This document shows, in pieces, positions 3,680 through 25,397 of a stretch of 64,000 nt of DNA. This DNA comes from an uncultured bacterium (GTDB taxonomy: Bacteria > Patescibacteriota > Patescibacteriia > UBA9570 > XYC2-FULL-38-9), in assembly GCA_937996685.1 (NCBI GenBank), contig CALKUP010000015.1, positions 7,900 to 71,899 of the forward strand, read 5' to 3'. Below the pieces are notes generated by a model. That model was not told the DNA's origin. It saw nothing but the letters and a program-made list of their open reading frames with translations, and ran no database searches. The position numbers were made by a program, and so were the translations under genes. Every line of letters starts with the position of its first letter. Position 1 is the first letter of the stretch.

Positions 3680-3754
3680 GGTGGCTATAGCTCAGTTGGT
3701 TAGAGCATCGGTTTGTGGTACCGGGGGTCGTGGGTTCAAGTCCCATTAGCCACC
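3680..3754 (+). tRNA. tRNA-His(GTG) with G-1; full CCA not encoded
   Basis: GGTGGCTATAGCTCAGTTGGTTAGAGC..TTGTGGT..GGTTCAAGTCC..TAGCCACC. Confidence 0.95.
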
Positions 3755-3758
3755 CATG

Positions 3759-3797
3759 AAAAGAAAGGATGTCCCTCAGGGGGCATTTTTTCTTTTC
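3759..3797 (+). terminator. intrinsic terminator after tRNA-His
   Basis: GATGTCCC-TCAG-GGGGCATT hairpin plus T-tract. Confidence 0.75.
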
Positions 3798-3810
3798 ATT
3801 TGTTGAATAA

Positions 3811-3934
3811 ATGGACTTGAAGGGTATCCGAGATGACTGCCAAATGGCAGTCGACGAGGAACCCAGGTTTTGAAGGAGATGTGAGCCATGCCGCAAAGCG
3901 GCGGAGCGAGCATCGGGTGAAAAAAAGTCCCACC
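3811..3934. repeat. tRNA-linked structured element bounded by T-arm-derived inverted repeat
   Basis: ATGGACTTGAA (inverse of tRNA-His TTCAAGTCCCAT) ... AAGTCCCA; internal hairpins GACTGCC-aaat-GGCAGTC and CCGC-aaa-GCGG. Confidence 0.55.
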
Positions 3935-4114
3935 TATACCTTTATAAAATATTAGCTATCAAGAATAGGACTTCGATCGTATATTTGATTTGTTTATCAA
4001 AACAAGGTTCAATAGCTATATAACATTGTCGGAAAACCTTTTGCATCACAACAAATTAATATAATTTATATACTATATTCATACTTAAAATAAACATAAT
4101 ACATACTATTAATT

Positions 4115-5341: not shown

Positions 5342-5714
5342 AGGAATAAATCTACCATATACATTTATATGTTCCAAGGATATTTATTTATTTGGTTACG
5401 CAAGTGCTTTGTTGAGACTGAAAGATATGCCATGTTAGTTGATATAACTGCATGTCCCTTCACGCAGAATTTGAAACTTTCCGCTTCTACTAAACATATA
5501 ACAATTCAGTCCGAACCTCATCCAGCAACCGACCGATGATAAGAAATGAACTTGAAGGGCATTGGCCGCTCAAGTGTTGTCTAAGGAAAATATAACCAAA
5601 GTTCTATAGAAAAACTCCGCTTCAAATGTAGATTTTTTTGATATAAAAAAAGGGTGACGAGGAGACGGCATCGACGAGCGCACAATTGCACTTGAAGTTG
5701 CCGCCCCCCGAGGC

Positions 5715-5960
5715 TCACTGCGGGACGCCGGGATTGGCGAGGTGGAACGCAAGCTTCACAACGAGAAGGCAGAGGATCATCGTCCCCAGACCACTCACCA
5801 TCCCACCCGCGCTGATGCTACCGAGCCTGTAGGACTTCGAACGGATGACGACCAAGCGACCGGGCTGCAGTGCCCCGATCACGCCGAAGATGGTCCCTGT
5901 GCCAAGACCAAGAGCCGCGCCGATCAGGCAGATCGGTTGTACGAGACCAAGGAGCTCCAT
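5715..5960 (-). CDS. small two-TM membrane protein, cassette A
   Basis: AAGGAGG SD, TTGACA-16-TAGGCT promoter, 3' hairpin plus U-tract; paralog of 9550..9765. Confidence 0.75.
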   Translation of the reverse strand: MELLGLVQPICLIGAALGLGTGTIFGVIGALQPGRLVVIRSKSYRLGSISAGGMVSGLGTMILCLLVVKLAFHLANPGVPQ

Positions 5961-6047
5961 GGCTTCCTCCTTTTGTAAGATGTCGCCTTGTTAAGTAAGC
6001 GACTACCATGGGTATTGCCAGCCTACCCCTAACAGCTGTTTTGTCAA
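5958..6047 (-). repeat. 90-bp promoter/leader repeated at 9763..9852
   Basis: Gapless alignment, about 71/90 identical by hand count. Confidence 0.9.
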
Positions 6048-6100
6048 CGACAACAAGAATGCCGTGGAACATTAATCCACGCTTCCTCAACAAGCCGAAC

Positions 6101-6478
6101 TCAATGATTGTGGTCTGGTGTAAAAAATGTTATTTCAAATCCTTCAGGGTCAGCTATACAAAACGATGTGTCCCCCCAATCATTTTTCCGTATTGGAAAA
6201 ATAACACTTTCATCATCCTTAAACTTTTCCCAGATTGCATGCACATTGGAAACCCGCAAAGAAATATCGTTGCTGTAGGCCGCTCCATCACTTTGATGCG
6301 CGTCAGATAAAAGCTCAATAATGCCACTCCCCGTATCAAACATTACACCGCGATGCGCAGGACCATCATTCCATTCTGTACGTACGGAAAATCCAAGTGT
6401 GTCAGCATAAAATGCCCGAACACGATCAAAATACTTTGGGTATAATTTTAAACGAAATTCTAAAACGTCAATTTTCAT
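6101..6478 (-). CDS. VOC/glyoxalase family protein
   Basis: AFYADTLGF...WGDTSFCIADPEG. Confidence 0.85.
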   Translation of the reverse strand: MKIDVLEFRLKLYPKYFDRVRAFYADTLGFSVRTEWNDGPAHRGVMFDTGSGIIELLSDAHQSDGAAYSNDISLRVSNVHAIWEKFKDDESVIFPIRKNDWGDTSFCIADPEGFEITFFTPDHNH

Positions 6479-6576
6479 AAGGGAATTCTACAGGTTCTTA
6501 CTTCGTCCAGCAACCAACCTCATGATAAAAAAGGATGTCCTTCAGAGGCATTTTTTTGGAGCGCACTGTGCCTCAC

Positions 6577-7587
6577 CTACATCACTGACGGCAATACATC
6601 TTTAAACTGCTTAAAATGTTGCAACGCCCGATCCTGCAGCATTCTCTCTACCTCATCATTTTCCGCTCCCTCCTGATTTACAAAACGAACCAATATTGCC
6701 TTGCTATTTCTTTTGAGCTCATCAATAACCTCCTGAATATCTTGAACATACTGAGTGATAATTTCTTTAGCTTCCTGGATAGAGCACTGTAATTCTGTCG
6801 CGATACTATTCACAGTATTTTCATCAATACTATCGATATTGATATCTTGAATAGATGTATTTTCAGTTAACATTGAAAAAAGATACCATTCCAATTTTGG
6901 TGAATCAAGATACGAACCAAACACACCGCCATATATCAAATCAATCTGCACCAACTCCGCGAGCAACCATTCCTTCTCAATGGGCTCGTTACTATAGATG
7001 CGCTCTATATCAAAATGCTCATTTTCAACAAGCAATGAAGTCTTCTCTTTTTCAGCGTAAATAGTGGGTGATATAAACGCATGTGCTTGTGGCATTGCCG
7101 CATACAAACGTTGTTCCGCTGTATGACACTCCTCCATCGCCTCTCTATACTCCACTTCTAAATCATATCCAATATTTCGTAGCAGGATTGGATTTTTCTT
7201 ACACGTCTCAATCTGCTCTGGCGTTGCATTCCGCGGATAGAGCACGCCAAAATTCAACACATATTCAAATTTATCCATAGCCGACATACGCATCGGTCGA
7301 CCGTCCTTTCCAACACCTTCATCGGAAGTCCATTCAAATCCTGGAATGACGTAATTATGTGCGTCAAGAAATGTAAAAATCTTTTTTCTTATGTGACTTA
7401 GTGCTGTTTTATATGGCTGCAGTTCTGTTTTCAGAGAGGCATCCCAATTCTCCATTGCACTTGCGTATTCCATATCATTGCTCACCTTCTGGTGTACGAC
7501 TGGATTATTCATTTCTTCCCGAAAAAAAGCCCATGTACTATCAGCTTTTTCAGAATCAAACGCAATATATTGTATATCTATACTCAT
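6577..7587 (-). CDS. hypothetical protein
   Basis: Long ORF, start taken at MSIDIQY; no motif recognised. Confidence 0.7.
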   Translation of the reverse strand: MSIDIQYIAFDSEKADSTWAFFREEMNNPVVHQKVSNDMEYASAMENWDASLKTELQPYKTALSHIRKKIFTFLDAHNYVIPGFEWTSDEGVGKDGRPMRMSAMDKFEYVLNFGVLYPRNATPEQIETCKKNPILLRNIGYDLEVEYREAMEECHTAEQRLYAAMPQAHAFISPTIYAEKEKTSLLVENEHFDIERIYSNEPIEKEWLLAELVQIDLIYGGVFGSYLDSPKLEWYLFSMLTENTSIQDINIDSIDENTVNSIATELQCSIQEAKEIITQYVQDIQEVIDELKRNSKAILVRFVNQEGAENDEVERMLQDRALQHFKQFKDVLPSVM

Positions 7588-7733
7588 AGATCGATTGTAG
7601 TTGAGCGGCAATGTACTGTAAAGGACGTCTTTAAGATAAAAAAATAATCTGAGAGCGATGCCTTGATTTTTTAGCTCCGTTATTGTACACCACACCTACC
7701 GCAGTTTTGATCTCAACAGACACGGAGGTTCAC

Positions 7734-8177
7734 ATGCCTATTGTCCGGACCCTGAAACCTCATTGCGGCTACACTCGCCTCATGCTCCACAACACGTGGC
7801 GCAAGGATTGTGGCTTGTACTGGTTCATCGTGTTGCAGCTCGAGGACGATCTCCTGATCATTCTCTCGAATACCGAAGGAGAGCTCGCTCCAACAATTCG
7901 TCAACTGGCTCACAAGGCCATTGAGATGGAAATGGAGCCAATGAAGACGGACTCGCTGTTCACCGACATAATGCGCATCAACCCCGAAGCGCTGCCTATC
8001 GTTGCGACCGGTGCCCTGCACGTGTACAAGAGCGTTCTAGAGTCATACGGCTCCGATCAAGAGCTTTGGGATCGACGCGTTCTCTGGGCGCCGCACTCCC
8101 TAAACACAATGCTTTTAGATGTGCAACTCAACGACGCTGTCCAGGCAGGGATCGAGGAATTCCTCTGCCAGGACTAG
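7734..8177 (+). CDS. hypothetical protein, cassette C
   Basis: GGAGGT SD before ATG 7734; GC-richer codons; terminator 8222..8247. Confidence 0.7.
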   Translation: MPIVRTLKPHCGYTRLMLHNTWRKDCGLYWFIVLQLEDDLLIILSNTEGELAPTIRQLAHKAIEMEMEPMKTDSLFTDIMRINPEALPIVATGALHVYKSVLESYGSDQELWDRRVLWAPHSLNTMLLDVQLNDAVQAGIEEFLCQD

Positions 8178-8309
8178 GCGCTACCGGTCATAAAAAATCA
8201 CAGCACAATTTACTGTCGTTTGCGGACCTGACCACTCCGCTTTTTTTCTTATTATGATTTTTTGCTTCTCAATTTTATCTAGACTATACTAAAAAAATCT
8301 ACATACACT

Positions 8310-8888
8310 ATGAAATATCAAACACCTCTCATTGCAACAACCACCTTTTTAGGAGTCATTGTTCTCATAGGAATCTATCAATATGCCTTTAACAGTGACG
8401 GTGATCTATTTGATGCGTTACAATCATCATCTGCCGTCGAAACAACGTTTCATGAAAATACAGACAGGATAAATCAAATTCATACAACTACCAAGGAAAC
8501 GAACCAGAGCTTTTATTTGCGACCATGGACAACAGGCTGCATCAACACCCTTGATACACAATGCGTAGAAAAATCAGCACTAGACAGCATTGGTTTGCTT
8601 GCCTTTAAAACCGATCCGAAATTCAAACAGGTAGAGCACCTGAAAGAGTTTGGTGAATCAACTTGGTTTACATTTGATGAGCGAAAACATTTTGATAAAC
8701 GTCGAGAAATTGGCATCGTTCTTGTAGACGACCCTGACTCTTTTATCAAAACATTGCACGACTCTCCTTTTTACGAAAACATCGATCAGCTCGACAAACA
8801 CATTACAGAACACCCAACCGCAACCAGTTACGCATTTGCCCGTATAGAAAATGGTGTATACGTTTTTTATCAATACACGCCATATTAG
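8310..8888 (+). CDS. hypothetical membrane-anchored protein
   Basis: N-terminal TM; TATACT upstream. Confidence 0.7.
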   Translation: MKYQTPLIATTTFLGVIVLIGIYQYAFNSDGDLFDALQSSSAVETTFHENTDRINQIHTTTKETNQSFYLRPWTTGCINTLDTQCVEKSALDSIGLLAFKTDPKFKQVEHLKEFGESTWFTFDERKHFDKRREIGIVLVDDPDSFIKTLHDSPFYENIDQLDKHITEHPTATSYAFARIENGVYVFYQYTPY

Positions 8889-9025
8889 TTCAGTGGATAT
8901 ACAGTTCTCTTTTTTTTATAACGAACCTACACTCTTCCCTGTCATTTCATATAGATTTATATGTCTCTGTATGCTTAAATACAGGTATTATTTAATATAC
9001 GTATTTATTCAATATTCTACACACT

Positions 9026-9397
9026 ATGGCGACAATAAATCCTTGGATCAATTTTAATGGCAATGCTGAAGAAGCATTTGATTTCTATCAATCAGTGTTC
9101 GGCGGCGAAGTAACAAAAGCAGAAAATGGAATGTTTATTTCTTTGCCGATTGGTAAAGAGAATCGCCTCATTGCCAATAATGTTCCACCAGAAATGGGCC
9201 GTGTGAATGAAAATGAAAATAGAAGCAAAATTGCAGTGAGCGCGGAAAGCAAAGAAGAAGCTGATAGAATTTTTAACGGCCTTTCAGCGGGCGGTGCTGT
9301 TGAAGTGCCAATGTCTGATGGCATGGGATTCTATATGGGGATGTTTCGAGATCAATATGGCATTGAATGGATTATTGAATACACACCAAATAACTAA
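9026..9397 (+). CDS. VOC family protein (PhnB-like)
   Basis: INPWINFNGNAEEAFDFYQSVFGG...GMFRDQYGIEW. Confidence 0.9.
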   Translation: MATINPWINFNGNAEEAFDFYQSVFGGEVTKAENGMFISLPIGKENRLIANNVPPEMGRVNENENRSKIAVSAESKEEADRIFNGLSAGGAVEVPMSDGMGFYMGMFRDQYGIEWIIEYTPNN

Positions 9398-9422
9398 CTC
9401 TTCAAAAGTAATAAAAGACTAC

Positions 9423-9452
9423 AAAAAATCCGCTGACTATGCGGATTTTTTT
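9423..9452. terminator. bidirectional intrinsic terminator
   Basis: AAAAAATCCGC-tgactat-GCGGATTTTTT between convergent genes. Confidence 0.8.
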
Positions 9453-9549
9453 ATACGATACAATAAGAAATAAGGACAGGAGACGACTATCTTCAAGCGC
9501 GTGTTGCACTGAAAGTTGTCGTCTCCGAAAGATCAGCTTTCTTGCAAAG

Positions 9550-9765
9550 CTAGAAGTACTGCAAGTAATTGAAGATGATCAGCCCGCACGAGATACTCAT
9601 CAACCCAGCTGTAAAGGCAACGGATATAATCTTGCCTAAAGGGTACGTTTGAGAGCCAATAGGCACCGGGACAGTACTCTGGATCATGACGTTGACGCTA
9701 AAAAGAGCAACATAAGACGTCATCAACCCGCCAATCACGCACAGGATCGCAGCAAGGATCGCCAT
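9550..9765 (-). CDS. small two-TM membrane protein, cassette B
   Basis: GGGAGG SD, TTGACA-16-TAGGTT promoter, 3' hairpin 9479..9526; paralog of 5715..5960. Confidence 0.75.
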   Translation of the reverse strand: MAILAAILCVIGGLMTSYVALFSVNVMIQSTVPVPIGSQTYPLGKIISVAFTAGLMSISCGLIIFNYLQYF

Positions 9766-9907
9766 GGTTTCCTCCCTTTGTACGATGTCGCTCTGTTGAG
9801 TAAGCGACGACCATGGATACTATAAACCTACCTTTTGTGGCTGTTTTGTCAATAAAAAAGGCTCCATACAAAAAACGTCACATACGGATTGACCAACCGT
9901 TTTTTTA

Positions 9908-14156: not shown

Positions 14157-17100
14157 CTATTTGCTTACAGCGAAAGTTCCGTTAGTCTTGAGCTTCCATG
14201 TGCGACTCACGCGTTTGCCTGATTTGCCATAGGTCACAGTCACTTGTTTCTTTTTTGTATTCACCGACAAGACTGGCTTTGATAAGTCGGTCACAGTAAG
14301 CGATTGTGATTGCTGTTTTGTGAGCGTATGCGCAGTTGTTAAACGCATTCCATAGACTCGCGCAGTCTTTCCTTTGACTGCTGCAATAAAGACTGAATCA
14401 TAACTATTGTATACCCGAGTCACAGCAATGCGATAATTTGCGCTTGTGTAGGCTGTTTTTCCAATTGTTTTTTTCGCTACTTGTACTCCATTTTTAAAGA
14501 CACGAACATCTTTACCGTTTGTTACAACAATACGCTTTTTATCTGTCGATAAGGCATATCGAAAATTTTTCGACGTTCCAAATGGTCTGAGTGTTGCAGT
14601 TGTTGTATCAGCATATGTCACTGTCAGCGCGGCACCACTTTGACGCACCGTCCGCACTGCTCCGTGATCTACCGGCGTTGTATCAACTGGCTCTGGAACA
14701 ACTTCAGGAGCGACAACCGTTACTGTGCGAGTCACTTCTGTTGCGGCATTTCCTGTACTATCTTGCACGTTATACCGCAATGTATATGTCCCAACAGTAT
14801 TCACATCAACGCTACCCGTTTGCACAATACTACTGGTGACCACACCCTGGACCGCATCTGTCGCTGTTGCTCCAGCGTCCGTATAACTATCACCTTGCGT
14901 GATTGTGACCGCGGAATTGCCAAGCAATGAAATCGTTGGTGCTGCCCGATCAAGTGTCACAGTAGACGCGACAGCTGATACTGTTGTATTTCCAAGTGCG
15001 TCTTGATACCGCAGTGTCACTGTGTACACACCGTCTGCCAAAGTTGATGCAGACGCAGAAGTAACATGGCTAGAAGTAAATAAATTTGAAAGTTGAAGCG
15101 TACTATTTACAGATTGCGTTGTATCCATCAACAACGTTGTTGAGCCGCTGGCATTATCAAATGACACTGAAATAGTGTTTGATTGTGGCCCTTCTGGAAG
15201 AGAATATTGCAATTGCAACGCGTTATTAAAACTACTGCTCGCAGGTGATGTGAGCGTCGGGGTTTGGGTTGTTGTATCAATAATAACACTCGTTGCAACA
15301 GCACTCGTTGCTGGATTATTACGACCATCACGATAACTAAGTGTCACAGTGTGTGTTCCGTCAGCAAGGACTGGCATCGCACTTGGCGTAATCGTATTGA
15401 TATTTGAAAGATTATCAAAATTTACTTGATTGCCACTATCTGCAGGATTAAACAAAAAATTCACTGACTGACTATTTTCCATTTGGAATACTACCGTGCC
15501 ACTGGTTGCTACATTCGTGAATGTGACACGCACGCTTCCGGCAAGTGGTGCTTCTGGAAGAGAATATTGCAGACGGACTCGATTCATCGATCCTGACCCT
15601 GGCGATGACAATGTTGGTGATTGCGTAACAGTGTCAACTGTAACCGTCGTTTGCGCTGCAACAGAAATATCCCCTTCATCATCCACGGAAAAAATACTGT
15701 AGTAATAAAGACGATCCAGCAAATCATTATCTGAACGTGTTGTTCCGGTCACACCACTCGCAACAGCTGAGCCATCCGTCACACTCGTCGGATACGCTGA
15801 TGTACTACGACGAATTGTCACTGACGAAAAATGCGGATCGGTTGAATTTGTCCACGCAAGGTTCACGTCATTCCCAACAGCTGTCGCAGTAAAAGCCGTC
15901 GGCGGAGTGGTATAGCCTAATTCGTACGCACCAATATCACAATTGGTATTTTGCGGGCGAGAAGTTTGCCGTGAATCTGTTATAAGAGCCGAACCAGCTG
16001 CATCTGTACATGACACAGGCGGGATAAGATTTAATGTATCACCAACTCCTGACAATGCGAGTGTTTGCACAAAACCTCCATTATTTGCCGGCACCGCTGT
16101 TGCCATGTAACTCGGTGGCACTGGATGATTGAATGAATCTCCTGTCACTGAGGTGATAAAACAATCTTCTCTTAATTCCCCAATATAATTATAGCCTTGT
16201 GATGTAAGGTTTCCTTGGCAATCCTCATAAAAAGGTGATGGCATTGGAGCAACAAAATTGGATGCAATAATGTTATTTTTCAGAATAACATTACTAAATC
16301 CCCCACTATAGACACCAGCTGCAATACCTGCATGATTATTTGTAAAGGTTGAAAACGCAATCACAATTTCTGGTGTATCACCTGTACTTGAATTGAATCC
16401 ACCCCCAGTATCAGATGCGGTATTATTATAAAACGTACCATTAGTAATCTGCATTGGCGTGCCAGCAAATACACCACCTCCAGCCACCGCTGTGTTCTCA
16501 ATAAAGGTGACACGATTCATAACAATTGGATTATTCCCTTCAGGCCCAGAACCAGAAAGACCTCCACCAGCATCTACCGCTGCTGTATTATTTGTAAACT
16601 CAACATCGGTGAGCGTATTGGTTGTTGTTGTGTTTGTATCAATAAACATACCACCGCCACTAGCAGCTGAGTTTCCAGAAATGATTGTACGACTGATATC
16701 AGATGTACAATCACCTGAAATTCCGATACCGCCACCAAACACTGTTTGCACCCCTGGATCAGCTGACATGTTGCCACTCACTGTCACATCCGTCAGTGTT
16801 ATATCCCCGGCTGCACAATAGATACCAGCGCCATACTGCGAAATAATCCCACTTGGGTTATCAAGGACACTATTTTGGATTGTCACATGTGAAAACACCA
16901 ATGAGCCCTCATTTAATACACCGCCACCATTTGCACTGGTCACTGAACTGTCATTCACAGTCACACCAGACATTGTCGCTCGCGCCCCGCTGGCAATATG
17001 AAAAGCACGGTCAAGATCATCTGAGTCAATAATGGTCGTTGCCATGTCAGCGCCAGTCACGGTTGTGAGGTCTGCATCAAGAAAGTCAAAATCACCCGTT

Positions 17101-17351
17101 ACATTCAAGTCTTCACCTGCTCCTGATCGTGTAATATGGTACGTATTTGCTGGCAACACAATCGTATCAACACCTCCACTATTTGCCGCAGTCACTGCTT
17201 CACGCAACGAACAATCGGAGTCACATGTACCGTCGGCTGTATCGGTATTTTTTGTGACTGTATACGTTGCGGCGTGTGCAACTGTTGGCGTCAATCCAAT
17301 AAGAACAAAGAAGAGAATTGATAACGCGCTACCATAAAATATTTTCAGCAT
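14157..17351 (-). CDS. large surface protein: CSLREA domain, Pmp-like beta-helix, FN3/Ig-like and DUF5011 domains, basic C-terminal domain
   Basis: Signal peptide, DCSLREAV, N.A..GGG repeats, CDIGAYE, YTDAGATATD. Confidence 0.85.
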   Translation of the reverse strand: MLKIFYGSALSILFFVLIGLTPTVAHAATYTVTKNTDTADGTCDSDCSLREAVTAANSGGVDTIVLPANTYHITRSGAGEDLNVTGDFDFLDADLTTVTGADMATTIIDSDDLDRAFHIASGARATMSGVTVNDSSVTSANGGGVLNEGSLVFSHVTIQNSVLDNPSGIISQYGAGIYCAAGDITLTDVTVSGNMSADPGVQTVFGGGIGISGDCTSDISRTIISGNSAASGGGMFIDTNTTTTNTLTDVEFTNNTAAVDAGGGLSGSGPEGNNPIVMNRVTFIENTAVAGGGVFAGTPMQITNGTFYNNTASDTGGGFNSSTGDTPEIVIAFSTFTNNHAGIAAGVYSGGFSNVILKNNIIASNFVAPMPSPFYEDCQGNLTSQGYNYIGELREDCFITSVTGDSFNHPVPPSYMATAVPANNGGFVQTLALSGVGDTLNLIPPVSCTDAAGSALITDSRQTSRPQNTNCDIGAYELGYTTPPTAFTATAVGNDVNLAWTNSTDPHFSSVTIRRSTSAYPTSVTDGSAVASGVTGTTRSDNDLLDRLYYYSIFSVDDEGDISVAAQTTVTVDTVTQSPTLSSPGSGSMNRVRLQYSLPEAPLAGSVRVTFTNVATSGTVVFQMENSQSVNFLFNPADSGNQVNFDNLSNINTITPSAMPVLADGTHTVTLSYRDGRNNPATSAVATSVIIDTTTQTPTLTSPASSSFNNALQLQYSLPEGPQSNTISVSFDNASGSTTLLMDTTQSVNSTLQLSNLFTSSHVTSASASTLADGVYTVTLRYQDALGNTTVSAVASTVTLDRAAPTISLLGNSAVTITQGDSYTDAGATATDAVQGVVTSSIVQTGSVDVNTVGTYTLRYNVQDSTGNAATEVTRTVTVVAPEVVPEPVDTTPVDHGAVRTVRQSGAALTVTYADTTTATLRPFGTSKNFRYALSTDKKRIVVTNGKDVRVFKNGVQVAKKTIGKTAYTSANYRIAVTRVYNSYDSVFIAAVKGKTARVYGMRLTTAHTLTKQQSQSLTVTDLSKPVLSVNTKKKQVTVTYGKSGKRVSRTWKLKTNGTFAVSK

Positions 17352-18989: not shown

Positions 18990-21900
18990 TTATTGTTTTT
19001 TCAATGCACCGCTTGATTGCACAAGCCATGTATATGATTGCTTTTTCTTGCCTGAACCAAAAGTGGTTGTGAGTTGTTTTTTCTTTACAGAGAACCCAAT
19101 ATTGAGTTTTGTATTACTTTGAATTTTGACTGTTTGAGCAGTTTTTTTCTTTAACCCATTCCCTGTTGTGAGCTGATGCGCAAAGACTGTTGCCGTCGTC
19201 TTTTTTGGAGCGATTGTGACAAAGACTGAGTCAAAATTCTTGTGCACTTTTCTGACAGAAAGTGTGTATTGTCCTTTTTGTACTGTTGCGTTTCCAAGTT
19301 TCGCTCGCGCAACCCGACGACTATTTGCAAACACGCGAATTTCTTTTCCGTTTGTCGCAACGATCCGTTTTTTATTACTTGATAACGTATAGAGAAAGTT
19401 TGCAGACGTTCCAAATGGTTGAATTGTCGCTGTTGTCGCATCACGATATGTCACAAGTAACTGGTTGTTGATTTTTTGTACAGTCGTAATGACTCCATCA
19501 TTTGTTGTTGTGACAGGTGGCGTTGTCGGAGTTTCTGTTGTCGTTCCTGGATCAGTAGCCGGCTCATCAACTGGACAACCCGTCGTCGTAAAGATCCCAG
19601 CATCTGATGTCGAGCGATTACCAGAAGTATCGGCGGATGACGCAGTATATTGATACGTTGTACATGCCGTGAGACCAGACAGCAATACAGCATGGCTGGT
19701 CACACGTGGCGCAAAGTCTACTTCTGCAGTTGTTGTCGTTGACCCGCCAACCGGACCATATGACACGCGACTTGATGACGCTTCATTCGTTGTCCATGTG
19801 ATAGTAGCTCCTGTTGTCGCTGGCGTTGCGCTCAACGCTGTAATAGCTGGGGGCGTACTATCATCCATGCCCCCAATAGACCACAGCTCTCGCCCATAGG
19901 CCTGGGATTGCGCAGTAAATACTGCTCCACCCCCAAAACCAAGTACCGTCGATGGATCGCTGCCCAATAGGCCTGGATTAATATCAGACAGCATGTATGT
20001 CCCGTTTGATGTTCCGTCTGAACGCCACAACTCTAGACCATGTGCTCCATCGTGTACTTGAAAATATAATATCCCATTGACTGCACTAAAATCACCCCAA
20101 CTCGAATTATTCGCACTTGTCACTTCTTTTACTTGAACTGTTCCTTCAGTTGTACCATCCGTTTTCCATAATTGGGGAAACCCAGATCCGTTATCGGCGG
20201 TAAAAAAGAGTGAACCGCCAACGATGGTTAAATTCCCTGGATAGCTATCACCTCCTGTGTTTTCATTGATATCTTTTACCAGCGCTGTTCCTTCTTCTGT
20301 TCCATTTGATTTCCAGAGCTCCGTGCCACCTTCATTACTATTGTATGCAGAAAAATACATCCAATCATTCAGCACAACCATACTGCTCGGCAAGGCACTG
20401 CAATCAGGACAGAGATCAACTGCGAGTACTGTTCCTTCAGTTGTGCCATCAGTCTTCCATAACTCATACTCATGAGAATCATCACTAGCAGTAAAATACA
20501 ACGTACCGTGATACTCAACAAATCCAAATGGACCACTGCCTGTACTGCCTGGGAATATATCTTTCACGAGCGTTGTTCCTTCTTCTGTTCCATTAGATTT
20601 CCACAATTCAAAACCATGAGCGCTGTCATATGCAGAAAAATATAACTCACTATTGTATGTAAATCCACCCTGGATATAGGACATTCCCTCTTCATTTACA
20701 TCTTTTACGAGCGCTGTTCCTTCGGTTGTACCGTCCGTCTTCCATAACTCGTAACTATGCGTTCCATCATCAGCGGTAAAATACAGAGCATTACCAACTA
20801 TCTTAAAATTATATGGATATGAATTATCAACTCCTGTAAAAATATCTTTTACCATTACTGTTCCTTCTTCAGTTCCATCAGTCTTCCATAGTTCGTAGCC
20901 ATGCGTTCCGTCATCAGCGGTGAAATATGTAACACCATCGAGGTAGATAAAACCGTATGGATAACTACTACCACTTGGACGAATATCTTTTAATAATTGC
21001 GTACCCTCTGCTGTGCCGTCTGATACATACACCTCTGCGCCAGTGGACGGATGTGACGCAACACCAATTAAGCGACTCCCTGCAACAATAAAATCTGCCA
21101 CACTTCCACCAGTTCCGCTGCTGTCATTTACTTCAGCGACCATGGAAAAATTATTTTCAGTGGTGCTAAATTTCCACAAACGTTGACCGCTGTCGCCATT
21201 GTCTCCGGCAAATAACAGATTCGTCCCATTTATCGTAAACCACTCTATGCCATCACCTGTTGGGTTCAGATCCTCAACCATCAATGTTCCTTCTTCAGTT
21301 CCATCAGTCTTCCATAGTTCATAGCCATGCGTTCCGTCATCAGCGGTGAAAAAGACCTGACCGTCTACAATAGTAAACATTCGTATATCCAGACTACGAT
21401 CACCTTCGTTAATATCTTTCACCAACGTTGTTCCTTCAGTTGTGCCGTCGGTCTTCCATAACTCGTAGCCATGCGTTCCGTCATTTGCAGCAAAAAATAA
21501 TGTTGAGCCAGTGCCAAAAAACATTCCCGGACTAGCATTTGCGCTGCCAGGATTAATATCTTTCACCACATAGGTTCCTTCATCAGTTCCATCAGTACGC
21601 CAGAGCTCAGAACCATTTGTACTATTTGTGAGCTGGTAATAACCAATGCCATTAAAACTATACACATCACCAATGGTAACTCCAGAGCCGATTGGTTCAA
21701 TGTTCTTAATCAAATATGTGCCACGAGCAGTTCCGTTTGTTCTCCATAACTCCCAACCATTTACACCATCATCAGCTGCAAACACCACTGTTCCATCCCC
21801 TATCTGAGTAAAGAAACAAGCATATGAACCATATGATCCCGCATTCACATCTTTCACCATACGTGTTCCGTTTGGCGTTCCATCAGTTTTCCATAACTCA

Positions 21901-24900
21901 CTGCCATTGATGCCGTCATCCGCCGTGAAATACATCACTGAATCAAACACCGTTTGCCTATCAATCCTTGCTTGGTCTTCAGGGTGAATATCTTTAATCA
22001 TTTCTGTTCCGTTTGGCGTTCCGTCAGATGCCCACATTTCTCGACCATGCACTCCGTCATCTGCTGAGAATACAATCCGACCATTCACAACATACAAAGA
22101 TTGAATTGACTCTGAATACGGACTGATTTGTTTTATAAATTCTGTCCCAGCATCTGTCCCGTCTGATTTCCATATTTCTGATGAGTCACTAAAGAACACA
22201 GAAAAATATGCGGTAGACCCAATAACCTCAATATCATTGATATACCCCTCTTCACCCGAAAATGAGCGCAAGAGAGTCGTTCCACCTGTTGTACCGTCTG
22301 TTTTCCAAAGCTCACTGTCGTCTTTTGCTTTAAAATAGGTCACGCCGTCACCAGTTGCAATGTCACCTATGTCTGCATCAGCAGGGCCATCATCAATGTC
22401 TTTTATCAACTCTGGCGTTTCTGAAGCACCTGCACTTGGACAACCATTCGTCAAAAAATATTTTGAATTACTTTGCGCTGAGTTCTCTGCAGTATCAACT
22501 GACTGCACGGTGTATCCATAATGCGTACACGGCAGCAATTCAGTCAGTACAACTGAATGACTTGTCACTCTCGGGTCTATGTCAATTTGACTTGTTGTTA
22601 TTGGCGCTTGATTTGTTGCGTGATACGACACCTCACTCGAGCTCGCCTCATTGGTATTCCATGTAATTGTTACACTTTCATCTGTAATACTTACCTCTTG
22701 CTGATAAATACTTGGGCCCGTTGTATCCGTAATACTCCCTAATACCCACGGCTCCCAATTATATTCTGGTGTATATGCTGAAAAAAATACACGGCCTTCA
22801 AAAGATGTGAAAAAAGCCGGATAACTAGAATCTACACCAGGATTCAAATCTGCAAGCTCTTGCGTTCCGCCTTCAGTCCCATCCGATACCCATGGTTCAG
22901 TTCCGTGATCGGTTGTATTCACACTAAAATACAACAAACCGTTTATTGCTGTAAGGTTTGAAAATGCATAACTCGAAACATCCGTAATGTCTTTTACTTT
23001 ATGTGTCCCACCCTCGGTTCCATCAGACGCATAGAGCTGTCGAGATCCTGTCCCGTCATCGGCAATGAAAAATAACGTATCACCAACGACTATCATCTGC
23101 TCAGGACTTGCATACGCGGTACCTGGCGCAATATCTTTCACCATGTACGTTCCACTTTCAGTCCCATCTGAACGCCAGAGCTCGACTCCAGTGTCGGTAT
23201 CTGGAGAATATATTTCAAAATATGCAATACCATTCATTGCCACAATATATGATGGCTGACCTGAACATCCACTAGAACACGCATCTTTTACCATGTATGT
23301 TCCGCCTTCAGTCCCATCTGAACGCCAGAGCTCCATGCCATGTACGCCATCATTTGTATTAAACAATACAGTTGAATCATCAATCGCCGTTAAATCATAT
23401 GGATCTCCATTGCCCGAAGGATTTGTATCTTTGACCATGTATGTTCCTTCCTCGGTTCCGTCAGAACTCCAGAGCTCTGTTCCGTTGGTGTCATCTGTTG
23501 CAACAAAAAATGCCGTATCACCAGCGTTAATGATATACGTTGGATCACTAGAGCCTGACAACCGAATATCCTTCACCAGCATTGTTCCGCTTTCAGTCCC
23601 ATCTGAACGCCAAAGTTCTTTTCCGTTTACCCCATCAGTTGCAGCAAAAAACAACATGCCATTGACGACAGTAAATGATTCAATGTCACTAGAGTCAACT
23701 CCAGTGTTAATGTCTTTTAACAAGAACGTCCCTTCAGGAGTTCCATTTGATTGCCAAAGCTCTGTTCCATGATCAGCGTCAGTGGCTGTAAAATATGTCA
23801 CACCATCGAGATAGGTAAAATGATCTGGAGCGCCGTCATTTCCAAGGTATATATCTTTCACCAGCGTTGTTCCGCTTGGCGTCCCATCAGAAATATAGAG
23901 TTCATTTCCAGTCACCGGTGACGTTGCTGAGCCAATCATAAAACTGCCCGCAGCAATAAATTGAGAACCACCATCCATTGTTGCAGTGCCACGATACAAA
24001 GACTTCACTTTCACTGTCCCTCCTTCTGTTCCGTCTGACTTCCAAAGACCTGTTCCATCGGGTCCTGTTGTACCTGCAAAAAACACGTTGGTTCCCGTTG
24101 AGCTAAATTGACCACCATATTGAAACACAACGCCGTTCGAGTACGGACTCACATCACGAATCAATGTCGTCCCTCCTTCTGTACCGTCGGTTTTCCATAG
24201 CTCATGTCCATATACCGGATCAATAGCACTAAAGACAACATCTGAACCGACCATTTGAAAATTCGATGGGTATGCATTTGAATTGCCTGGGAAAATATCT
24301 TTGACCAAAACAGTACCCCCTTCTGTTCCATTTGATTTCCAGAGCTCGCTACCATGAACGCCGTCGTCAGCAACAAAGAATACAGAATCATTATATATAA
24401 AGAAATCAAACATATTTGAACCTTCAGTACCTGGGAAAATATCTTTGACTAATACAGTACCTTCCTCAGTTCCGTCTGATTTCCATAATTCAGCACCATT
24501 TGTACCATCATTTAATGAAAAATACGCCACTCCATTATGGGCAATACTGTAATACACGGCAGAGCTTGCGCTCCCAGGGGCAATATCAGACACCAGCGTC
24601 GTCACGTCAGTATCCTTTACTGTTTTCCATATTTCAGATCCGTAATCCGGCGTGGTAGCGCTATAGAGAATCGAATCACCAATGTCAACTAAATAACCTG
24701 GATACGCCCCCCCGATGCCTGCGTATAGAGGAGCCACCATATACGTCCCTATTTCTGTTCCATCTGATTTCCAGAGCTCGCTACCATCAAATCCGTTACT
24801 TGCGGCAAAATACAACCCTGAACTCGTTGCAAGCATAGAGCTAATCCCAGAATCATCTGTTGAGAGATTAATCTCAGCAACCATCACCGTTCCACCTTCT

Positions 24901-25397
24901 GTTCCGTCTGATTTCCAGAGCTCTCGACCATGTGTATCATCTTCGGCTGTAAAAAACAGCGTCCCAGAAACATCGATCAAATCACGCGGATAACTTCCAC
25001 CACTTGTATTAATATCTTTTACTTTTACTGTCCCTTCCTCTGTTCCATCTGATTTCCAGAGCTCTTGCCCGTCACTTGAATCATTAGAAACAAAAAACAA
25101 CGTCCCGTTCGACGCTGTTAGATAATCAATATTCGCAGAACCTCCCACATTCGGATTCGCGACTAATACCGTTCCACCTTCTGTCCCATCTGATTTCCAT
25201 AACGCATTCCCATTCACACCATCATTTGTTGTGAAATAGGTTGTTGTTCCAATAGTCGTGAGATTCAAAATATCATCTGCCTCTGGAGCAGTATTCATAT
25301 CTTTAAACAGCTCGGGCGTATCATACGCAAACGCAGCTGCTGTATGAAAAACGAAGACGCTTGCAAGTACTATAGAAAATATCAGGCGCTGTATCAT
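18990..25397 (-). CDS. giant ELWxxDGT-repeat surface protein with two FN3-like domains and basic C-terminal domain
   Basis: Dozens of ELWKSDGT/ELWKTDGT repeats in two blocks, each followed by an ITW.TNEASSS.VSY domain; signal peptide. Confidence 0.9.
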   Translation of the reverse strand: MIQRLIFSIVLASVFVFHTAAAFAYDTPELFKDMNTAPEADDILNLTTIGTTTYFTTNDGVNGNALWKSDGTEGGTVLVANPNVGGSANIDYLTASNGTLFFVSNDSSDGQELWKSDGTEEGTVKVKDINTSGGSYPRDLIDVSGTLFFTAEDDTHGRELWKSDGTEGGTVMVAEINLSTDDSGISSMLATSSGLYFAASNGFDGSELWKSDGTEIGTYMVAPLYAGIGGAYPGYLVDIGDSILYSATTPDYGSEIWKTVKDTDVTTLVSDIAPGSASSAVYYSIAHNGVAYFSLNDGTNGAELWKSDGTEEGTVLVKDIFPGTEGSNMFDFFIYNDSVFFVADDGVHGSELWKSNGTEGGTVLVKDIFPGNSNAYPSNFQMVGSDVVFSAIDPVYGHELWKTDGTEGGTTLIRDVSPYSNGVVFQYGGQFSSTGTNVFFAGTTGPDGTGLWKSDGTEGGTVKVKSLYRGTATMDGGSQFIAAGSFMIGSATSPVTGNELYISDGTPSGTTLVKDIYLGNDGAPDHFTYLDGVTYFTATDADHGTELWQSNGTPEGTFLLKDINTGVDSSDIESFTVVNGMLFFAATDGVNGKELWRSDGTESGTMLVKDIRLSGSSDPTYIINAGDTAFFVATDDTNGTELWSSDGTEEGTYMVKDTNPSGNGDPYDLTAIDDSTVLFNTNDGVHGMELWRSDGTEGGTYMVKDACSSGCSGQPSYIVAMNGIAYFEIYSPDTDTGVELWRSDGTESGTYMVKDIAPGTAYASPEQMIVVGDTLFFIADDGTGSRQLYASDGTEGGTHKVKDITDVSSYAFSNLTAINGLLYFSVNTTDHGTEPWVSDGTEGGTQELADLNPGVDSSYPAFFTSFEGRVFFSAYTPEYNWEPWVLGSITDTTGPSIYQQEVSITDESVTITWNTNEASSSEVSYHATNQAPITTSQIDIDPRVTSHSVVLTELLPCTHYGYTVQSVDTAENSAQSNSKYFLTNGCPSAGASETPELIKDIDDGPADADIGDIATGDGVTYFKAKDDSELWKTDGTTGGTTLLRSFSGEEGYINDIEVIGSTAYFSVFFSDSSEIWKSDGTDAGTEFIKQISPYSESIQSLYVVNGRIVFSADDGVHGREMWASDGTPNGTEMIKDIHPEDQARIDRQTVFDSVMYFTADDGINGSELWKTDGTPNGTRMVKDVNAGSYGSYACFFTQIGDGTVVFAADDGVNGWELWRTNGTARGTYLIKNIEPIGSGVTIGDVYSFNGIGYYQLTNSTNGSELWRTDGTDEGTYVVKDINPGSANASPGMFFGTGSTLFFAANDGTHGYELWKTDGTTEGTTLVKDINEGDRSLDIRMFTIVDGQVFFTADDGTHGYELWKTDGTEEGTLMVEDLNPTGDGIEWFTINGTNLLFAGDNGDSGQRLWKFSTTENNFSMVAEVNDSSGTGGSVADFIVAGSRLIGVASHPSTGAEVYVSDGTAEGTQLLKDIRPSGSSYPYGFIYLDGVTYFTADDGTHGYELWKTDGTEEGTVMVKDIFTGVDNSYPYNFKIVGNALYFTADDGTHSYELWKTDGTTEGTALVKDVNEEGMSYIQGGFTYNSELYFSAYDSAHGFELWKSNGTEEGTTLVKDIFPGSTGSGPFGFVEYHGTLYFTASDDSHEYELWKTDGTTEGTVLAVDLCPDCSALPSSMVVLNDWMYFSAYNSNEGGTELWKSNGTEEGTALVKDINENTGGDSYPGNLTIVGGSLFFTADNGSGFPQLWKTDGTTEGTVQVKEVTSANNSSWGDFSAVNGILYFQVHDGAHGLELWRSDGTSNGTYMLSDINPGLLGSDPSTVLGFGGGAVFTAQSQAYGRELWSIGGMDDSTPPAITALSATPATTGATITWTTNEASSSRVSYGPVGGSTTTTAEVDFAPRVTSHAVLLSGLTACTTYQYTASSADTSGNRSTSDAGIFTTTGCPVDEPATDPGTTTETPTTPPVTTTNDGVITTVQKINNQLLVTYRDATTATIQPFGTSANFLYTLSSNKKRIVATNGKEIRVFANSRRVARAKLGNATVQKGQYTLSVRKVHKNFDSVFVTIAPKKTTATVFAHQLTTGNGLKKKTAQTVKIQSNTKLNIGFSVKKKQLTTTFGSGKKKQSYTWLVQSSGALKKQ

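Follow-up and report, generated by a model that had tools for sequence, protein, structure and literature searches.

Type I toxin-antitoxin loci such as hok/Sok, aapA/IsoA, Fst/RNAII and timP/TimR are among the closest described systems to the two gene units analysed here, which resemble them in having a short monocistronic mRNA with a small hydrophobic protein, structured and conserved UTRs, an initiation region predicted to be occluded, multiple copies in the chromosome and a YUNR loop (PMC8594479, PMC6733600, PMC13000454). In T1TAdb, the toxins measure 20-60 aa, their mRNAs 150-400 nt and the antisense RNAs 60-200 nt (PMC8594479); a role of the YUNR motif in loops has also been described (PMC6562991). 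Unlike these loci, the units encode larger, two-helix proteins and have a predicted helix over the AUG, not the SD; we found in them no antisense gene, no specific 5'-3' anti-SD pairing and no sequence or profile match, and toxicity is only putative here. A second parallel is offered by the PeSL cassettes of T4-type phages, in whose hypervariable region small orphan genes are surrounded by conserved modules of a strong sigma70 promoter and a stem-loop (PMC2839356). The units, by comparison, are chromosomal, belong to a CPR-like bacterium, comprise two copies of the frame only, carry paralogous cargo and have a leader inside the frame. Shuffling of the PeSL type is not seen either; no copy of the frame came up in relatives searched with leader DNA, the leader pattern, the R1 model and the 3' region. 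Little has been described of post-transcriptional control in CPR/Patescibacteria; the open-access literature (with few subscription journals) gave no paper on type I toxin-antitoxin systems in Patescibacteria, nor one joining Patescibacteria toxin-antitoxin systems with Shine-Dalgarno sequences.

Two homologous units in a variable region

Both units lie in the window, that is, the whole 64,000-nt stretch of DNA that was analysed, with the following features.

3681..3791, plus strand: tRNA-His and terminator, an insertion hotspot, with the variable region that contains the two units downstream of it
6020..6047, minus strand: sigma70-type promoter of unit 1, predicted from sequence (TTGACA 6047-6042, 16-nt spacer, TAGGCT 6025-6020)
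9825..9852, minus strand: promoter of unit 2, likewise predicted (TTGACA 9852-9847, 16-nt spacer, TAGGTT 9830-9825)
5961..6013, minus strand: 53-nt leader of unit 1, with 5' CCAUGGU arm at 6011-6005 and SD GGAGG at 5970-5966
6003-5982, minus strand: leader hairpin of unit 1, 7 bp with an 8-nt loop containing YUNR, followed by an invariant AUC and an A-rich linker
9766..9818, minus strand: 53-nt leader of unit 2, with hairpin at 9808-9787 and SD at 9775-9771
5715..5960, minus strand: ORF of unit 1, 81 aa, GC3 0.74
9550..9765, minus strand: ORF of unit 2, 71 aa, GC3 0.65
5645..5708, minus strand: 3' hairpin of unit 1 (hairpin 5661-5708), then a CU/U-rich tract; z=-4.3
9460..9526, minus strand: 3' hairpin of unit 2 (hairpin 9479-9526), then a CU/U-rich tract; z=-4.8
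5607..5639, bidirectional: decayed terminator-type hairpin below unit 1, z=0.2, of a generic type also found behind other genes in congener G002
9423..9451, bidirectional: intact intrinsic terminator between unit 2 and a convergent glyoxalase-family gene, z=-4.8
5818..6009, minus strand: overlapping frame of 63 codons in unit 1, opened by its 5'-proximal AUG
9698-9814, minus strand: overlapping frame from the 5'-proximal AUG of unit 2, 38 codons

The promoter-leader blocks (5958-6047 and 9763-9852, both on the minus strand) align without gaps at exactly 71 of 90 identical positions, the approximate figure given in the original prediction, and the elements listed there (TTGACA-16-TAGGYT, two CCATGG hexamers, a GTCGC..GCGAC hairpin and GGAGG) are all present in both units. 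This promoter layout occurs 70 times genome-wide, and the predicted +1 (A6013 in unit 1, A9818 in unit 2) is placed by spacing alone. BLASTN against the 1.14-Mb genome recovered the other unit (E=6e-18) and nothing else at E<0.01; further copies, for which the prediction had proposed a search, were found neither in the genome nor in relatives. Sequence comparison demonstrates that unit 1 and unit 2 are homologous in every part.

Conservation and folding of the leader

The two leaders are identical at 44 of 52 positions and the ORFs at 92 of 207 nucleotides (Fisher p=1e-7), which bears out, for the leader, the proposal that the UTRs are kept far better than the protein; identity of the ORFs is clearly not comparable to that of the leader. 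In the unpaired part of the leader outside the SD, 19 of 24 positions are identical. The distal spacer and discriminator, taken as the neutral comparison with 13 hand-picked positions, keep 3 of 13 (p=0.0015); 3 of the 19 leader bases do pair in the alternative fold. Since leader identity far exceeds that of both the ORF and these weakly constrained promoter positions, selection on the leader is favoured over recent copying. The patchy pattern of divergence, with -35, -10 and leader kept and the distal spacer and discriminator random, also argues against simple recent copying. Part of the leader linker could be conserved as DNA.

Both leaders fold more stably than any of 300 shuffles (z=-3.9 for unit 1, -2.6 for unit 2). 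In each, a 7-bp helix is predicted between the first bases of the mRNA and the AUG, in competition with an extended hairpin. The original prediction of translational sequestration holds in so far as this helix dominates when the leader is folded alone (probability 0.99 in copy 1, 0.94 in copy 2). However, the helix of copy 2 is mostly lost in longer folds (P 0.01-0.13 in 6 of 7 longer constructs), which counts against a switch, and the cost of opening the RBS is ordinary, ranking 31st and 80th among 120 SD-led ORFs of the genome, a set drawn mechanically that includes spurious ORFs. In both full-length RNAs, the extended hairpin belongs to the fold of lowest energy. Deletion of the first 10 or 33 nt lowers the RBS opening cost in copy 1 and not in copy 2. 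None of the 21 predicted leader pairs is altered on both sides, that is, there is no compensatory pair; three have one-sided changes, and pairing is retained in all three. With only two copies, statistical covariation is not available for the leader. No known riboswitch or cis-regulatory RNA of Rfam 15 matched at or above its gathering threshold.

Two other roles for leader elements were considered and dropped. Complements for a loop-to-ORF pseudoknot, sought by eye, lie at non-homologous places in the two units, and CCATGG, a possible NcoI-site methylation target, is not depleted in the genome (observed/expected 0.89).

The encoded proteins

The unit 1 protein is predicted to form a helix (3-31), a beta-hairpin (36-45) and a second helix (46-75), and the unit 2 protein a helix (2-30), a loop and a helix (43-70). 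Both AlphaFold models are helical hairpins, that of unit 2 having been folded without an alignment. Pairwise BLASTP between them gives only E=2.0. Nevertheless, their global alignment score was attained by 0.1% of shuffles and in 1 of 1178 comparisons with hydrophobic windows of the genome. ORF homology rests on these two tests, since the codon-position pattern is partly circular, the alignment having been made on protein. The 81- and 71-aa ORFs are old coding paralogues with two predicted membrane helices each. The proteins had been described as alike only at C(L/V)IG and V.I.S..Y.LG.I; they have more in common, namely 21 identical residues in 69 columns (30%) and the two-helix layout. The label 'fast-diversifying' is not separable from 'old', third codon positions being saturated as well (22 of 69 identical).

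GhoT/OrtT and T4 Imm-type proteins are small two-helix membrane proteins. The unit proteins are like them in size class and helix layout, and neither has a relevant match in Pfam, NCBIfam, PHROGs or PADLOC.

3' hairpins and terminators

None of 300 shuffles was as stable as the 48-nt 3' hairpin, in either copy. The two hairpins are identical at 27 of 48 ungapped positions, in agreement with the homology proposed for them. The compensatory changes proposed along with it shrink to one: G-C to A-U is the sole true compensation among nine basal pairs, two others having changed on one side (G.U to A-U) and six being invariant. The middle stem is badly paired in copy 1. Similarity between the units runs on into the downstream terminator-type hairpin. 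The 3' hairpin with its U-rich tract is likely a terminator or a 3' protective structure. A SECIS element was rejected for this hairpin because in unit 2 the TGA ahead of it is not in frame. Candidate antisense promoters of convergent orientation (5629 and 9459) were set aside as non-homologous and lying in AT-rich terminator DNA.

Searches for homologues

Leader DNA gave only two short chance matches in 100 related genomes, a 33-letter leader pattern with up to three mismatches none in 300 genomes of the class, and covariance model R1 none in 60 genomes. With the 3' region, matches of 18-37 nt were obtained in 5 of 31 genomes of the order (E 0.004-0.04), three of them on the terminator, and none was taken as a homologue. 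Four patterns run against viral sequences gave 31, 0, 1 and 0 matches, none with the leader. A metagenome pattern gave at least 100 matches; among the matches listed none had promoter and leader together, and the best other nhmmer match had E=0.035. In the genome collection one pattern had no match and another at least 119; among these no match to the tail occurred, and the matches listed were unrelated. Phages gave no match and plasmids seven short ones. L063, L068 and L133, which have a similar leader geometry, were dropped, as the short ORF is unrelated and L063 lacks a tail. A protein profile found nothing in 11 genomes of the family, protein database searches (some covering near-length candidates only) gave no match, the best ESM Atlas score of 0.87 is at lead level only, and fold searches returned only generic helical hairpins.

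A class of GC-rich, SD-led genes

All eight housekeeping genes checked are without an SD and have a GC3 of 0.31-0.39, against 0.65-0.74 in the two units, and GGAGG precedes only 6 of 715 long ORFs of the genome, which is 98.7% complete. In at least four other neighbouring pairs of GC-rich, SD-led genes, the leader, the trailer or both are 88-94% identical between the partners, whose proteins gave no BLASTP match to each other in the four pairs compared. Most SD-led genes of the class carry 5' and 3' hairpins, and the pattern of UTRs better kept than ORFs recurs around non-toxin-like cargo. The unit pair appears to belong to a genome-wide class of orphan genes that are GC-rich and SD-led and have conserved modules on their flanks. 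Each unit is absent beside the orthologous glyoxalase gene of a congener, and partial repeats of tRNA-His/terminator are found at 5509-5562 and 6492-6557.

A translational-control leader and competing explanations

We see roughly even chances that the units are old paralogous, self-contained accessory cassettes (promoter, 53-nt leader, two-helix membrane ORF and 3' hairpin) whose leader is likely an undescribed translational-control RNA, its first bases pairing with the start codon until released by a shared factor. The leader is likely a real regulatory RNA because it is almost identical in two distantly related genes and has a predicted fold over the start codon. In the off state, the 5' CCAUGGU of the nascent mRNA would pair with RCCAUGG over the AUG; alternatively, the 5' GGU would pair with the invariant AUC behind the hairpin, extend the hairpin and free the AUG from the helix. 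The fold might be shifted at the conserved loop and linker by a factor that both genes share and that acts in trans, either a protein or a small RNA, or else by a ribosome at the 5'-proximal AUG. The 3' hairpin and U-tract would terminate and protect the transcript, and the protein may be a dose-controlled, membrane-acting accessory factor of surface or defence. The leader is a compact RNA with two natural alleles and two competing predicted folds; that a single genome supplies just two copies limits the weight of the case.

A new type I toxin-antitoxin family, in which membrane toxins would be encoded by an inert mRNA and neutralised by a putative cis-antisense RNA, seems to us rather unlikely. 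The mRNA lengths of 371 and 358 nt (predicted +1 to U-tract, ends inferred) do fall within the T1TAdb range, and the small hydrophobic ORFs, the repeated accessory copies at a tRNA hotspot and the YUNR of the leader hairpin loop, where the sole loop change falls on N, would fit this reading too. The proteins, however, have 71-81 aa and two helices, beyond the 20-60 aa of T1TAdb. An antisense -10-like hexamer, at homologous places in the two units (5976 and 9781), is in the top 0.4% of positions, but such a -10 is expected by chance in about one fifth of 52-nt stretches, and the antisense -35 matches at 2 of 6 positions in unit 1. The frame opened by the 5'-proximal AUG recalls mok, the overlapping 5' frame of hok; a residue is altered in 4 of 6 changed codons of its leader part, with no sign of coding constraint, and the resemblance is one of geometry only. 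Pairing of the SD with the 3' end had looked specific (matched by 0/119 and 1/119 other tails) when control tails were cut arbitrarily; with tails cut at the U-tract, which 55 of 120 had, specificity was gone, since among 54 unrelated terminator tails 4 did as well for one unit and 19 for the other. No Rfam antitoxin reached its gathering score, the only antitoxin match (OrzO-P, 25.8 bits against 60) sits on the terminator, and no long trans complement was found in the genome. Opening the RBS has an ordinary cost, and non-toxin-like proteins of this genome are flanked by UTRs of the same pattern. Since no antitoxin was found and other gene pairs show the same pattern, the type I reading is unproven. 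The likeness to type I toxins drawn in the original prediction thus finds nothing type-I-specific to support it (proteins too large, no antisense gene, an ordinary RBS cost), and the antisense RNAs it had suggested looking for left, at sequence level, only the weak -10 at 5976/9781. If the proteins were toxic, a lineage of obligate symbionts would gain a new family of toxins; otherwise, the pair would still be a clear example of strong UTR constraint in the orphan-gene class of the genome.

A bolder form of this idea is more doubtful still. Here the units would be the first membrane-toxin module under RNA control in a Patescibacteria-type symbiont, with two AUGs mutually locked in a self-complementary CCAUGG helix and opened by a factor or antisense RNA reading the U-turn loop. 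They would be part of a class of mRNAs that are GC-rich, SD-led and armoured by hairpins, perhaps a gene set for defence or host interaction that is regulated apart from housekeeping genes without SD.

It is also unlikely, in our view, that the flanking sequences form a generic expression frame, which recombination between adjacent cassettes keeps alike or reuses, with the leader serving as a stable 5' hairpin and strong RBS and no switch. The four other pairs with similar UTRs around dissimilar ORFs and the hairpins on most SD-led genes of the class speak for such a frame, as do hotspot cassettes with 82-98% identity between congeners, against about 67-69% in their core DNA. Against it, the ORFs of the two units are homologous, their divergence is patchy, and the leader of another UTR-sharing pair turned up in none of the 31 further genomes searched in the order, so that cargo swapping is not shown. 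Nor were an integron integrase or a reverse transcriptase found in the genome: its single PF00589 gene is best read as XerC/D-type (XerC model 232 bits, integron integrase model 125 with a cut-off of 265). The 3' hairpin has no closing GTTRRRY of an attC site (RYYYAAC...GTTRRRY, sought by eye), and each unit has its own promoter, unlike the promoterless cassettes of integrons.

That the conserved block is a DNA operator for a repressor, such as a TrmB-like regulator of the kind common at the hotspot, with incidental folds, is very improbable: seven invariant spacer bases behind the -35, TrmB-like genes beside GC-rich genes in congener G002 and hairpin arms that are also a DNA inverted repeat would suit it, but at paired positions the changes exchange A and G opposite U, so that wobble pairs in the RNA survive and DNA symmetry is broken, the plus-strand consensus fold is weaker (-12.6 against -20.2 kcal/mol), no regulator gene is adjacent and the same 12-mer begins one other promoter of the genome.

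Finally, the 3' part of unit 2 (9437-9657) is matched without differences by a contig of run X2.

Conservation of the two units

Both units comprise a promoter, a 53-nt leader, an ORF and a 48-nt 3' hairpin followed by a U-rich tract:

5645..6047, minus strand: unit 1, 81-aa ORF, predicted +1 at A6013
9460..9852, minus strand: unit 2, 71-aa ORF, predicted +1 at A9818

The ungapped 90-nt match claimed for them is borne out at 71/90 positions. Homology starts exactly at the -35 box (5/23 identical in the upstream flank) and then varies from part to part: 24/35 in the promoter, 44/52 in the leader, 28/48 in the 3' hairpin, whose 3' arm was misplaced by the aligner, and 25/33 in the terminator. 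The ORFs agree at 108/246 positions by DNA alignment or 92/207 by codon alignment, so the leader is indeed better kept than the coding sequence, as originally predicted. Within the promoter the boxes (6/6 and 5/6) and the first seven spacer bases are kept, whereas the distal spacer and discriminator lie at background (3/13); within the leader, 24/27 paired and 19/24 unpaired non-SD bases are identical. This patchy divergence speaks most strongly for selection on the leader and against recent copying; the duplicated feature is real and under selection. No further genomic copies appeared: BLASTN, nhmmer and a covariance model found no third copy in the genome. Among 68 TTGACA-16/17-TAnnnT promoters of this genome, 35 have G at -13 and 38 have T at -17, which is a lineage-type extended -10.

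Both ORFs begin at equal SD spacing. BLASTP between their products is not significant (E=2.0); a global alignment score as high as theirs came from 0.12% of shuffled sequences, 0.6% of block-shuffled ones, 0.1% of codon-shuffled DNA and, with 589 hydrophobic windows aligned to each protein, from 1 of 1178 comparisons. At the three codon positions the ORFs are 42/59/32% identical. AlphaFold models unit 1 as helix/beta-hairpin/helix (pLDDT 74) and unit 2, folded alone, as helix/loop/helix (pLDDT 77); sequence, profile and fold searches found no family, homologue or specific fold for either.

Predicted RNA structures

With the +1 set seven bases past the -10 box, where both copies have an A, the leaders fold with z=-3.9 (copy 1) and -2.6 (copy 2). 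In a predicted 7-bp helix the first bases of the mRNA pair with the start codon; a 7-bp hairpin and the SD region lie inside it. The copies differ at three paired positions, in each case A/G opposite U, so that every pair is kept and none of the three is a compensatory change. In the predicted full-length folds of both RNAs the 5' GGU instead joins an invariant AUC, lengthening the hairpin, and hence two competing leader folds are predicted. The SD there pairs with the stretch that follows the 3' hairpin; such pairing of the SD with the 3' end typifies hok and aapA (PMC6733600, PMC8594479). The AUG helix predicted in both leaders is in line with translational sequestration, as first proposed. 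Against strong sequestration, the cost of opening the RBS is ordinary (31st and 80th among 120 SD-led ORFs), the SD-to-3' pairing is equalled by 4/54 and 19/54 unrelated terminator tails, and in six of the seven longer constructs of copy 2 the AUG helix has a probability P of 0.01-0.13.

The leader hairpin loop carries YUNR, a motif known from hok/Sok and other systems to promote contact between RNAs (PMC6562991); we estimate that about a quarter of 8-nt loops would contain one by chance. No antisense gene emerged, and the single homologous -10-like hexamer is a weak one. The AUG within the 5' CCAUGG opens an overlapping frame of 63 codons in unit 1 and 38 in unit 2.

The 3' hairpins are stable in both units, with an invariant top stem. 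The compensatory changes claimed for them hold for one of the nine basal pairs, two more being only one-sided. Many genes of this class have a long 3' hairpin, so the simplest assumption is that these hairpins terminate or protect the transcript.

Genomic setting

The genome (1.14 Mb, 18 contigs, 98.7% complete) is consistent in size and gene content with a CPR/Patescibacteria bacterium. Both units sit in a variable region that has tRNA-His on its upstream side. Further features of the window are:

3681-3755: tRNA-His
3736-3935, 5509-5562, 6492-6557: recurring pieces that derive from the 3' end of tRNA-His, from its terminator and from the DNA that follows
7734-8177: orphan gene of 147 aa, GC-rich and led by GGAGG
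18990-25397: gene for a surface protein of 2135 aa, with some 21 repeats that are each 141-147 nt long and a C-terminal module shared with 14157-17351

The recurring pieces, also present in two congeners at 98% identity, are insertion scars of the hotspot. A glyoxalase-family gene adjoins each unit. Both units are accessory modules, because no unit stands beside the orthologous glyoxalase genes of the congeners G001 and G002 (92% and 91% identical); similarity to these loci ends near 6090 and near 9428.

In G001 the same hotspot holds an 11-kb integrated element (L151:3922-15229), delimited by a repeated tRNA end, with a large serine recombinase, a rep-like gene and a DGR-like set of reverse transcriptase, Avd-like gene, target gene and template-like repeat (near 5395-5640). 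In G002 it holds a row of four TrmB-like regulator genes (L154:4421-11874; two compared with NCBIfam), each divergent from a small GC-rich cargo gene. The 7734-8177 orphan is 82% identical to a G002 gene with a divergent TrmB-like regulator beside it; its leader has a TCAACA hexamer that resembles the unit 2 loop, occurs ahead of another G002 gene and may be chance.

Gene class and interpretation

The 16S rRNA of this genome keeps its anti-SD, yet GGAGG precedes only 6/715 long ORFs. In eight housekeeping genes the leaders are AT-rich and GC3 is 0.31-0.39; dozens of orphan ORFs, both units among them, combine GGAGG with high GC3. The class occurs genome-wide (for example, loci L282, L283, L284 and L285) as GC-rich, GGAGG-led genes that carry long hairpins at both the 5' and the 3' end, the housekeeping genes lacking an SD; four class loci tested gave no Rfam match.

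A regulatory leader on paralogous accessory cassettes is the reading to which we give an even chance; with two copies in one genome, its mechanism stays predicted. The units are not matched in Rfam, and literature searches gave no earlier description. The type I toxin of the original prediction is possible but doubtful. An RBS-occluding leader on a small membrane-protein gene does resemble type I toxin mRNAs (PMC13000454), but the products do not fit on size, no antitoxin was located and no family matched, so we do not file the units as a type I system; UTR sharing in this genome also surrounds secreted-looking cargo of 411 and 214 aa. Somewhat less probable is a generic recombined frame. Among 120 candidates, four further neighbour pairs share a leader and/or trailer at 88-94% over proteins with no BLASTP match at E<=0.01, and a fifth pair has trailers 75% and proteins 22% identical; patchy divergence, with the leader kept beside a drifted distal spacer and discriminator, speaks against it. 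Common flanks are confirmed within this genome; cargo swapping between genomes is not borne out, the leader of another such pair occurring in 0/31 other genomes of the order. That the conserved block is a DNA operator is very improbable.

In layout the units, here read as cassettes with a regulatory leader, resemble PeSL cassettes (PMC2839356). With no detectable homology to the two units, a metagenome locus (L063:1934-2040; also L068 and L133) has similar geometry: the ORF of a 37-aa peptide that looks secreted is preceded by a -10 box, CCATGG, a GTCGC..GCGAC hairpin and AGGAGG.
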